Shown here: positions 361 to 6,026 of the stretch, piece after piece
Layout of the letters: each line of letters opens with the position of its first letter
Position numbering within the stretch: position 1 is the first letter of the stretch
IMG/VR virus record: IMGVR_UViG_2740892230_000023
From: a virus
Lineage: Duplodnaviria; Heunggongvirae; Uroviricota; Caudoviricetes
DNA length: 6,751 nucleotides
Strand: one strand, 5' to 3'
Made by a program: the position numbers and the translations under genes
The notes under the pieces: model-generated
Databases searched by the model: none
Seen by the model: the letters and a program-made list of their open reading frames with translations, nothing else
What the model was told of the DNA's origin: nothing

Positions 361-504
361 TTTGCTGCTCCTCATCATATCGACCCTGCAAGGTCGGTTG
401 GTTTCTCCACAAAACAGAGAAGAACACCTGCGGTGGCAGCCGCCCGGATGGATTGGGTTATGAGCCCGTCGTCCGGTGATGCTCTTCTCTGTTTTGTAAA
501 AAGA

Positions 505-543
505 GCGGTACCAGCCGGAAGCAAGTGTACAAACTGGTACCGC
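505..543 (-). terminator. Candidate intrinsic terminator or regulatory hairpin in the leftward leader (10-bp stem gcggtaccag/ctggtaccgc, 19-nt loop, then TCTTTTTA on the minus strand)
   Basis: Perfect 10-bp inverted repeat at 505-514 and 534-543; minus-strand T-tract from the A-run at 498-502. The loop is long for a canonical terminator, so the call is tentative. Confidence 0.3.
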
Positions 544-908
544 CAAAGCAGTGGCTGTTGTGGTGGGGTTGTCACTCAGGCGTATGGTCAACCTGACAAT
601 CCGGTGTCCTCAACGGGGAAAGAGTAACCCCGCCATACTTACCGCCGCGCCATTTCGCGGATTACCACAACGCTGAGAGCACTTAGCCAGTTACGGCACC
701 ACACTTTGTCGCGGTTCCATAAATGCCCTCATCGTTGCACCCTGGTCTCTTCCCAGGCGTCAAACCGAATCGCCACGCTGGTTAGGCGTCTTATCAGCAT
801 CATCATTGACTTGCACATTCCGGCTACCTGGTTTGTTTGCTCGAGCAAGGAGTGGATTGTCCCCTTTAACGTCACCAGACCGCTAACGACGCATGTGCNN
901 NNNNNNNN

Positions 909-4579: not shown

Positions 4580-4607
4580 TGAGTAATAAATATTGCCNNN
4601 NNNNNNN

Positions 4608-4691: not shown

Positions 4692-5496
4692 ATGAGTAAT
4701 AAATATTGCCAGGCGCTGGTAGAACTGCGGAACAAACCAGCCCATGAACTGAAGGAAGTGGGCGATCAGTGGCGCACGCCGGACAACATTTTCTGGGGAA
4801 TTAACACCCTGTTTGGCCCGTTTGTTCTGGATCTGTTCACCGACGGTGATAACGCCAAATGCGCTGCGTATTACACGGCGGAAGACAACGCGCTGGCGCA
4901 TGACTGGTCAGAACGCCTTGCGGAGCTTAAAGGTGCTGCCTTTGGAAATCCCCCATACAGCCGCGCCAGTCAGCATGAGGGGCAATACATCACCGGCATG
5001 CGTTACATCATGAAGCATGCCAGTGCCATGCGTGATAAGGGCGGGCGCTATGTTTTCCTGATCAAAGCTGCCACCAGCGAAGTGTGGTGGCCGGAAGATG
5101 CAGATCATATTGCTTTTATTCGCGGGCGTATTGGTTTTGAACTGCCTGCCTGGTTTATCCCGAAGGATGAGAAGCAGGTGCCGACAGGCGCTTTCTTCGC
5201 TGGTGCTATTGCTGTTTTCGACAAGACCTGGAAGGGACCGGCAATCAGCTATATCGGGCGCGATGAACTTGAGGCATGTGGTGAGGCGTNNNNNNNNNNT
5301 CTGGTTTATCCCGAAAGACGAGAAGCAGGTACCGACAGGAGCTTTTTTCGCTGGTGCTATTGCTGTTTTTGACAAGACCTGGAAGGGACCGGCAATCAGC
5401 TACATTGGGCGCGATGAACTTGAGGCATGTGGTGAGGCGTTTCTGGCGCAGGTTCGCCTGCAGGCAGAACGGCTGGTCAGGGAGATAGTGGCATGA
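4692..5496 (+). CDS. Phage Dam-family DNA N6-adenine methyltransferase (orphan methyltransferase); coordinates inflated by an N gap and a 141-bp allelic overlap
   Basis: WRTP and NPPY motifs and overall resemblance to lambdoid/Stx-phage Dam methylases. N run at 5290-5299; 5300-5440 duplicates 5149-5289. Track ORF 5098-5496 is the same frame after the gap. Stop overlaps the rusA-type ATG (ATGA at 5493-5496). Confidence 0.85.
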
Positions 5497-5526: not shown

Positions 5527-5563
5527 NNNNNNNNNNGGAAAAGCTGGTCAGGGAGATGGCGGC

Positions 5564-5986: not shown

Positions 5987-6026
5987 NNNNNNNNNNTCAC
6001 TGGTTACATGAGAGAGGCCTGAAAGT

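Follow-up and report, generated by a model that had tools for sequence, protein, structure and literature searches.

A terminator-type hairpin and a conserved three-way-junction RNA domain as a candidate portable cassette in the early-left leader of N-less lambdoid prophages

The stretch of DNA analysed here (the window; 6,751 nucleotides (nt), IMG/VR record IMGVR_UViG_2740892230_000023) is the immunity region of an Escherichia coli lambdoid prophage; its assembly contains duplicated variant pieces with N gaps between them. On the minus strand, a cI-like repressor gene (1185-1859, Peptidase_S24) lies upstream of a pL-like sigma-70 promoter (942-969), in which the hexamers TTGACA and CATAAT are spaced by 16 nt and match the consensus at 11 of 12 positions. 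The first leftward gene, named yfdP in RefSeq, starts at position 360, approximately 575 nt past this promoter; its ATG (360 to 358) and the Shine-Dalgarno sequence GAGGAG (373 to 368) span 358-373 on the minus strand. According to Pfam, the products of the first five leftward genes are YfdP, a DUF2303 protein, a YfbR-like nucleotidase and two DUF551 proteins. The plus strand carries a Cro-like gene of the YdaS family and a CII (CP76) gene. RefSeq annotation is blank between the repressor gene and yfdP, with no coding sequence (CDS) in the interval. The leader located between the pL-like promoter and yfdP is structured and untranslated, and this report concerns two adjacent elements at its downstream end, a hairpin with the anatomy of an intrinsic terminator (T1) and a three-way-junction RNA domain (H2).

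The comparison of the leader drew on yfdP-linked loci in 80 viral contigs and in 31 genomes belonging to other species. Searching with the core of H2 as a DNA pattern added another 120 contigs, and the combined set contained 55 non-redundant copies. A gap-free copy of the leader identical to that of the window (locus L001) was used to read across the N gap.

T1 occupies positions 503-545 of the minus strand and consists of a perfect 10-bp GC-rich stem (543-534 paired with 514-505) supplemented by G.U pairs, of which the minus-strand fold adds two to three, and a loop of 15-19 nt. The hairpin is followed by U-C-UUUUU-AC (504 to 496), and the U tract proper (U-C-UUUUU, 498-504) corresponds to a run of T5-T8 in homologues. 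A preliminary description of the window, made from the sequence alone, had noted a GC-rich, terminator-like 10-bp hairpin at 505-543; the arms 505-514 and 534-543 are indeed perfectly complementary and enclose 19 nt. Since a perfect 10-bp hairpin with a loop of up to 25 nt arises in 15% of dinucleotide shuffles of the window, T1 alone is not significant, and comparative support was needed. Such support was obtained. A hairpin with a folding energy of -13 to -30 kcal/mol, followed 0-2 nt later by a T5-T8 run, is present in 50 of the 55 non-redundant homologues, and the combination is kept across Enterobacterales, including E. coli, Leclercia, Enterobacter, Phytobacter, Kosakonia, Mangrovibacter, Providencia and others. 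In the 26 copies with a short loop, 90.5% of the cells at the 11 stem pairs are paired, versus 35-64% in controls in which partners were slid. Both sides have changed at 6 of these 11 pairs; for instance, U-A is replaced by C-G ten times. The terminator-like character attributed to the hairpin in the preliminary description is therefore upheld by conservation of both hairpin and U tract and by compensatory changes in the stem.

The length of T1 ranges from 23 to 66 nt among homologues. A longer form, in which an insert of about 25 nt extends the hairpin, is found in L008, L010, L024, L027, L028, L030-L032, L120, L124 and L138. The insert holds a conserved unpaired GA(A/U)GAUAAUGUUCUG motif, and a UUUCCC loop motif is kept in many short forms. 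The loop region makes an extra helix in some homologues, and the loop may have a function of its own. Two other readings of this region were tried and rejected. Interpretation of GGCGGTACCAG as an ops element recruiting RfaH was dropped because GGCGG alone is conserved and the remainder covaries as a stem, and an antiterminator-type pairing of the upstream sequence AGCCGGAA (818-825) with TTCCGGCT (513-520) was judged compatible with chance.

Phage mEp460 is one of the best database matches of the window, and this match led to sRNA-17, a 193-nt small RNA (sRNA) of E. coli K1 strain RS218 that is encoded in an mEp460-like prophage and was detected in the lysogen by Northern blot and by 5' and 3' rapid amplification of cDNA ends (RACE) (PMC7719688, Front Microbiol 2020). 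We placed its ends on the window by mapping the primers listed in the supplement of that study. The “full-length” primer AAAAGAGCGGTACCAGCC... is identical to window positions 499-530 of the plus strand. Since this primer starts at position 499, the RACE-defined 3' end of the RNA, ...GGUACCGCUCUUUU, lies there and corresponds to T1 plus four U residues. The 5'-RACE primer is plus-strand sequence, so sRNA-17 is transcribed leftward. The lysogen that yielded sRNA-17 has a T1 identical to that of the window. Accordingly, a transcript end does map within the interval (498-505) in which the preliminary description had looked for one, and its alternative suggestion of an sRNA holds, as T1 carries the mapped 3' end of sRNA-17.

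The likeness extends to the setting, because in both cases the RNA is encoded on the leftward strand of an mEp460-like prophage, between the repressor gene and yfdP, but it does not extend to the whole RNA. The homologous segment of the window (499-672, minus strand) shares with sRNA-17 the T1 hairpin, the U tract and a total of about 74 nt at the 3' side (572 to 499), while the other end of sRNA-17, CGUUGUGGUGAAUGCG..., matches the window only over its first 9 nt (CGUUGUGGU, 672 to 664). The intervening stretch of approximately 100 nt is unlike that of the 193-nt RNA, and the segment thus fits the “degenerative” class of PMC7719688. Full 194-nt copies of sRNA-17 occur in 27 of the collected loci, such as L036. 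In PMC7719688, sRNA-17 is treated as a stand-alone, ArcA-regulated sRNA with a promoter inside the leader; the terminator, the context of a pL leader, H2 and the hairpin H3 described below do not feature there. T1 can thus be read as a predicted terminator of the leader that also supplies an sRNA with its 3' end.

The two ends of the sRNA-17-like segment may come together in the RNA. In the minus-strand transcript, GUUGUGGU (671-664), at the 5' end of the segment, pairs with ACCACAAC (564-557), which suggests a helix closing the body of the sRNA. The motif (C)ACCACAAC is conserved and sits just 5' of T1. Other leader types feature GTTGTGGTG 50-155 nt upstream of this CA motif, at times with compensatory changes (GTTGTGGCG and CGCCGCAAC in L020). 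The minimum-free-energy fold also pairs AGCCACUGCUUUG, just 5' of T1, with AGCAGCAAAAUGGCU in the yfdP start region (545-557 with 355-369), a pairing that is not conserved in other leader types.

Immediately downstream of T1, the perfect 15-bp inverted repeat noted in the preliminary description (409-423 and 483-497) is present and extends to 25-nt arms (409-433 and 473-497) that are 84% complementary. Perfect 15-bp inverted repeats within 100 nt were obtained in none of 300 dinucleotide shuffles of the window. Folding of the minus-strand RNA from 355 to 560 yielded -92.9 kcal/mol (z = -7.2 relative to shuffles), and in this fold 25 consecutive pairs join 478-502 to 404-428. The resulting H2 domain (404-502) is a three-way junction, in which a basal helix closes two smaller hairpins. 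A single nucleotide separates T1 from the basal helix in the fold. The 5' strand of the helix (478-502, minus strand) contains the repeat arm 483-497, and its first five nucleotides are the U tract of T1; the 3' strand (404-428) contains the arm 409-423, and its GGAGA (404-408) can pair with the U tract. The long-range helix proposed from the repeat thus forms, but it is not a simple sequestering stem just upstream of the ribosome-binding site (RBS); it closes a larger conserved domain.

Arm 1 of the junction (444-476, minus strand) is made of a CCGGA...UCCGG stem, GA/UC pairs and a 7-nt loop closed by three G-C pairs, GGG-CUCAUAA-CCC (467 to 455). Arm 2 (430-443, minus strand) is the hairpin GCGG-CUGCCA-CCGC, the stem of which covaries; its loop is often UUGCAG in homologues. 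H2 is followed by a conserved single-stranded tail, GUGGAGAAAC(C/U)AAC (397-410, minus strand), which marks the 3' boundary of the portable cassette, and then by H3 (ACCGACC-UUGCAG-GGUCGAU, 379-398, minus strand), a hairpin located between H2 and the RBS that has a variable stem and a U(U/G)GCAG loop in homologues. Arm 2 and H3 both have covarying stems and frequently the same U(U/G)GCAG loop; to judge from the sequences, this shared loop looks like a putative repeated binding site.

Covariation supports the whole domain. In an alignment of 36 sequences, 94.8% of the cells at 34 pairs of H2 are paired, versus 37-52% in slid controls, and 12 pairs (64 cells) have changed on both sides. The basal helix, 20-25 bp long with one conserved mismatch, contributes 20 of the aligned pairs (94.2% paired, 6 pairs changed on both sides), and both-side changes occur at 3 of the 4 pairs of arm 2 (helix 3). 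The nucleotides C-U-C-A-U in the loop of arm 1, which is closed by GGG/CCC in the window, are shared without change by the 36 aligned homologues; in roughly one homologue in four, only two G-C pairs close the loop (ACGGCUCAUAACCC). A U.G wobble is kept in 30 of the 36 sequences, and a covariance model built from the alignment gives scores of 120.7 bits (minus strand of the window) and 40.9 bits (plus strand). Conservation of a wobble together with the strand asymmetry of the scores indicates that the functional form of H2 is the leftward RNA and not the DNA. The length of the domain varies from 108 to 135 nt among homologues. Copies from Providencia retain the basal helix and the tail and have a plain hairpin in place of arm 1.

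No match to T1 or H2 was found in Rfam 15 (including C4, IsrJ, AgvB, STnc100, tRNA and ribozyme families) at E ≤ 1 over the whole window. Nothing credible was recovered at E ≤ 10 over 370-560, and the gap-free leader gave sub-threshold noise only; the covariance-model search for put- or nut-like elements proposed in the preliminary description thus returned no family for either element. ARAGORN identified no tRNA gene in the window, and a literature search for the exact leader sequences found no match. The idea that the CA-rich strands might act as a sponge for GcvB was dropped, as these strands are paired within H2. H2 is hence an undescribed and very widespread leader RNA domain that is absent from RNA databases.

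T1 and H2 travel together. The first gene behind the T1-H2 cassette is yfdP, rdgC or one of at least four others, and in many E. coli copies homology breaks at a recombination junction just 5' of T1. A search with T1 plus H2 as a 148-nt unit matched 2478 of 5426 complete E. coli genomes (46%) at a coverage of at least 80%, with up to five copies per genome; most of these copies bear the annotation “none” or “hypothetical protein”. The cassette is missing from E. coli loci (L006 and L015) where yfdP directly follows iteron-like repeats. The series of repeats (GATTTTGACGGGTCAGA..., 1240-1470 in L006) looks like a replication origin brought beside yfdP by a deletion. tRNA genes are found within the leader or near a copy of the H2 core in some loci, such as tRNA-Ile (aat) in L020 (1222-1300) and tRNA-Gln near the L148 copy (10718-10791), and a T-arm-like GTGGGTTCGAATCCCAC lies upstream of T1 in L203.

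A related arrangement heads late operons. Contig L198 features the H2 core twice, behind T1 at pL and again between the Q and holin genes. The pattern GGACGGCTCATAACCCAATCC retrieved 58 viral contigs (L245-L301), most of which show this late-leader arrangement, in which an intrinsic terminator is followed by UAUUCA, a 6-bp closing stem, arm 1 and a small second hairpin. The closing stem covaries (GGGCUC/GAGCCC versus GGGCCC/GGGCCC). Late copies have the same CUCAUAACCCAAUCC core as H2 and are located between Q and the lysis genes, as in L198 (11975-12065, plus strand) and L238 (2985-3075, plus strand); phage vB_EcoM-689R2 has the same arrangement between Q and the holin gene. The H2 model detects late copies at 22-31 bits, over its apical part. 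C-U-C-A-U is invariant in these copies as well, and all of them have only two G-C pairs (ACGGCUCAUAACCC) below the loop. In L198, the RNA upstream of the late terminator resembles the Salmonella sRNA IsrJ, with a score of 30.4 bits that is below the gathering score of 37. A short leader RNA, a terminator and an H2-type domain thus recur at the entrances of both early-left and late operons.

T1 has terminator anatomy and a structure under selection, and it coincides with a mapped RNA 3' end. Together with the data on H2, this leads us to favour, at a probability of about 0.6, a reading in which N-less lambdoid prophages carry a portable leader cassette where transcription enters their early-left operon; in it, T1 would serve as a gate and H2 would act beyond it. 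T1 would stop most polymerases arriving from pL, from promoters within the leader or by read-through of the cI-gene terminator. Such a stop would insulate yfdP and the downstream genes in the lysogen and would release the leader as a small RNA. Polymerases reading through T1 would make H2, which begins at the U tract itself and would thus be present in read-through transcripts only. The action of H2 on the read-through mRNA may depend on a partner with sequence specificity for the invariant loop (CUCAU AACCCAAUCC). For the basal helix, a part as a processing or stability element, for example an RNase III-type site, is the role that we prefer, and it is held loosely, as a tentative analogy. As happens in the lambda N leader, cleavage there could cut off the leader or sRNA part and so give the yfdP mRNA its 5' end. 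On induction, T1 could be overcome by partial read-through or by some further factor.

Known systems offer partial parallels. Lambdoid promoter-proximal terminators, such as those giving rise to the lambda pR'-tR' 6S RNA, StxS and IsrJ, likewise stand before the first gene of a long operon and yield a short RNA in lysogens and an mRNA upon read-through, and the IsrJ-like late leader of L198 is followed by an H2-like domain. They differ in that they act at pR', in contrast to the terminator described here, which is found at pL; we know of no Q-type factor acting at pL. The RNase III hairpin of the lambda N leader (and also the T7 R sites and the metY-nusA leader) resembles the basal helix in featuring at least 20 bp in an untranslated leader, and the lambda hairpin lies, as here, a few tens of nt upstream of the RBS of the first gene of the pL operon. 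In contrast to these sites, the helix of H2 closes a conserved three-way junction with an invariant loop, and its cleavage is proposed by analogy. At 20-25 bp, the helix reaches the length of about 20 bp or more expected of an RNase III site. RNase III does not require an invariant loop sequence.

Several observations weigh against the gate-and-domain reading. Terminators typically combine a short loop (about 3-8 nt) with high stability per nucleotide, a pattern from which T1, with its loop of 15-19 nt, departs; because the loop exceeds 8 nt, a simple consensus terminator scan passed over T1, and no termination efficiency can be predicted for so atypical a structure. Exonucleolytic trimming of a longer RNA could likewise leave a RACE 3' end at a stable hairpin. 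Few RNA-seq reads are available for sRNA-17 (Table S6 of PMC7719688), and a promoter scan recognised no sigma-70 consensus at the promoter assigned to sRNA-17 within the leader. No mechanism relieving T1 was found. As for RNase III, cleavage is an analogy only, and this role leaves unexplained both the invariant loop and the short closing stem of late copies, which measures just 6 bp; it is for these reasons that it is held loosely. Finally, the replacement of arm 1 in Providencia indicates that helix and arm may have separate roles.

The preliminary description had compared the leader with tL1/nut- or put-type control points, and both comparisons were weighed. In a nut-type site, CGCUCUUUUUACAA would be boxA, the adjacent hairpin would be boxB, and an N-like protein acting with Nus factors would make RNA polymerase resistant to termination. 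The element sits, like lambda nutL, between pL and the first gene, the boxA-like string is present (506 to 493, minus strand), and the window matches the 8-nt boxA core CGCUCUUU. However, CGCUCUUUUUACAA spans the final five nucleotides of the T1 stem, the U tract and the first part of the H2 helix. Its CGCUC part reads, for example, CCGCCC, CGCAC or CCGCAA in homologues, and the U tract alone is kept. Since CGCUC covaries as the 3' strand of the T1 stem, no boxA is conserved, and the core match is a chance feature of this one sequence; the string noted in the preliminary description exists, but its reading as boxA fails. In addition, there is no boxB-type hairpin with a GNRA-like pentaloop, Pfam reveals no N-like protein among the first five leftward genes, and no nutR counterpart is found in the pR operon, the H2 core being present in a single copy both in the window, which ends before Q, and in phage Ayreon, searched over its complete genome. 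N homologues are reported to be absent from phages with this left operon, for which a put mechanism is offered as a guess (PMC12315714). We therefore regard a nut-type site as scarcely credible. In a put-like role, the RNA of H2 or of the whole leader would act in cis by binding RNA polymerase, bringing about processive antitermination without a protein; this would account for the expression of early genes in these N-less phages, in line with that suggestion. As in HK022 putL and putR, a structured RNA with two adjacent stem-loops lies in the pL leader; moreover, H2 has invariant loop nucleotides and covarying stems, and H2-like domains also head late operons. In contrast, a put model built from HK022 putL and putR, HK639 putL and sites of five other phages recovered putL (92 bits) and putR (49 bits) but had no match at E ≤ 10 in the window, in the gap-free leader L001 or anywhere in the genome of Ayreon, a phage in which the element is present. 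H2 is located downstream of T1 and so cannot suppress it, whereas put sites precede their terminators. The left operon revealed no strong consensus terminator further downstream, the element is present once each in the window and in Ayreon with no copy in the pR operon, and late operons already have Q. A put-like function is, in our view, unlikely.

The most unusual lead concerns arm 1, the tip of which (CGGGCUCAUAACCC) matches the anticodon arm of tRNA-fMet exactly over 14 nt (as checked against metY of K-12) and adopts the same stem-loop geometry. Together with the invariance of C-U-C-A-U in the 36 aligned homologues and in late-leader copies, this raises the idea that H2 is a mimic of the initiator tRNA, acting either as a decoy for anticodon nucleases or tRNA-fMet-binding proteins, or in cis, binding the 30S P site and thereby controlling initiation at the first gene. 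H2 would then be a new class of phage leader RNA, an initiator-tRNA anticodon mimic placed behind the gate terminators of early-left and late operons in N-less lambdoid phages, with a part in initiation control through the P site or tRNA-fMet factors, or in defence against nucleases. A precedent for anticodon-arm mimicry is the thrS operator, in which a leader hairpin with a 7-nt loop and a G-C stem copies an anticodon arm; here, in contrast, the initiator tRNA would be mimicked, the leader is that of a phage, the element is not detected as a tRNA, and no cognate binding protein is known. The two-pair stems of about a quarter of the homologues and of all late copies, the failure of ARAGORN to see a tRNA and of the H2 model to match metY, and the Providencia copies without arm 1 all speak against mimicry, and the resemblance, drawn from the sequence, was noticed post hoc and is not universal. 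We consider it a long shot. Processing into an immunity RNA of the C4, CI or CA type (P1, P7, P4 and N15), in which a small RNA cut from the leader pairs with the nascent leader or the RBS and thereby enforces termination or blocks translation, would suit the presence, in a lysogen, of a small RNA that derives from the leader and lies ahead of a terminator and a three-way domain of clover-like shape (PMC7719688). It is very improbable, since C4 gave no Rfam match even at E = 10 on the short region, no nearby targets complementary to the loops of H2 were found, and the loops of arm 2 and H3 carry the same sequence rather than complementary ones. There is finally very little room for a DNA-level element, such as a protein-binding site or cruciform, or for coding by small open reading frames (ORFs; 433-627 on the plus strand or 375-575 on the minus strand). 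Inverted repeats are symmetric in DNA, and one phage record annotates hypothetical ORFs here, but the conserved G.U wobbles, like the U tract 3' of the hairpin, occur on the leftward strand only, the model score is likewise strand-biased, RefSeq shows no CDS, and coding is excluded by the length differences among copies of T1 and of H2, which are not multiples of three. An upstream ORF starting at (G/A)UGGAGAAAC, an in-frame extension of yfdP and a plus-strand ORF of 64 residues were rejected separately, because neither frame nor length is conserved. The portable cassette with T1 as gate is therefore retained as the preferred reading.

Other features of the window are as follows. A canonical terminator of the cI gene (978-997, read from 997 to 978 on the minus strand) directly precedes the pL-like promoter, and its T run abuts the -35 hexamer. 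The operator/terminator region (933-1007) gives weak sub-threshold Rfam matches to STnc50 (26 bits) and STnc370 (23 bits). The 15-mer TGTGGAGAAACTAAC, which ends the leader cassette (410 to 397, with one difference), recurs exactly at 2731-2745 on the plus strand, at the 3' end of the CII-like gene, and provides the RBS region for the gene that follows; a linker used in recombination or a signal for translation common to both sites are possible roles. Runs of ten N residues are found at 61-70, 248-257, 899-908, 1077-1086, 4598-4607, 5290-5299, 5527-5536 and 5987-5996, and near-duplicate stretches flank them (for instance, 909-1076 and 1087-1255, or 1-60 and 197-247). The window resembles an assembly path that joins allelic variants in series, and coordinates to the right of position 900 are consequently not collinear with real genomes.

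Lambdoid phages of the yfdP/yfdQ/yfdR type have no N protein, so the gating of their early-left operon calls for other elements. What was known already is T1 as the 3' end of sRNA-17, an RNA that can now be reinterpreted as a terminated pL-leader RNA. What is new is its placement at the entrance of an operon, together with a covariation-supported H2 domain, in nearly half of the complete E. coli genomes, and a related cassette has been identified behind tR' in late operons. T1, the basal helix and the CAU loop are concrete, mutable elements through which early genes may be controlled in N-less prophages.

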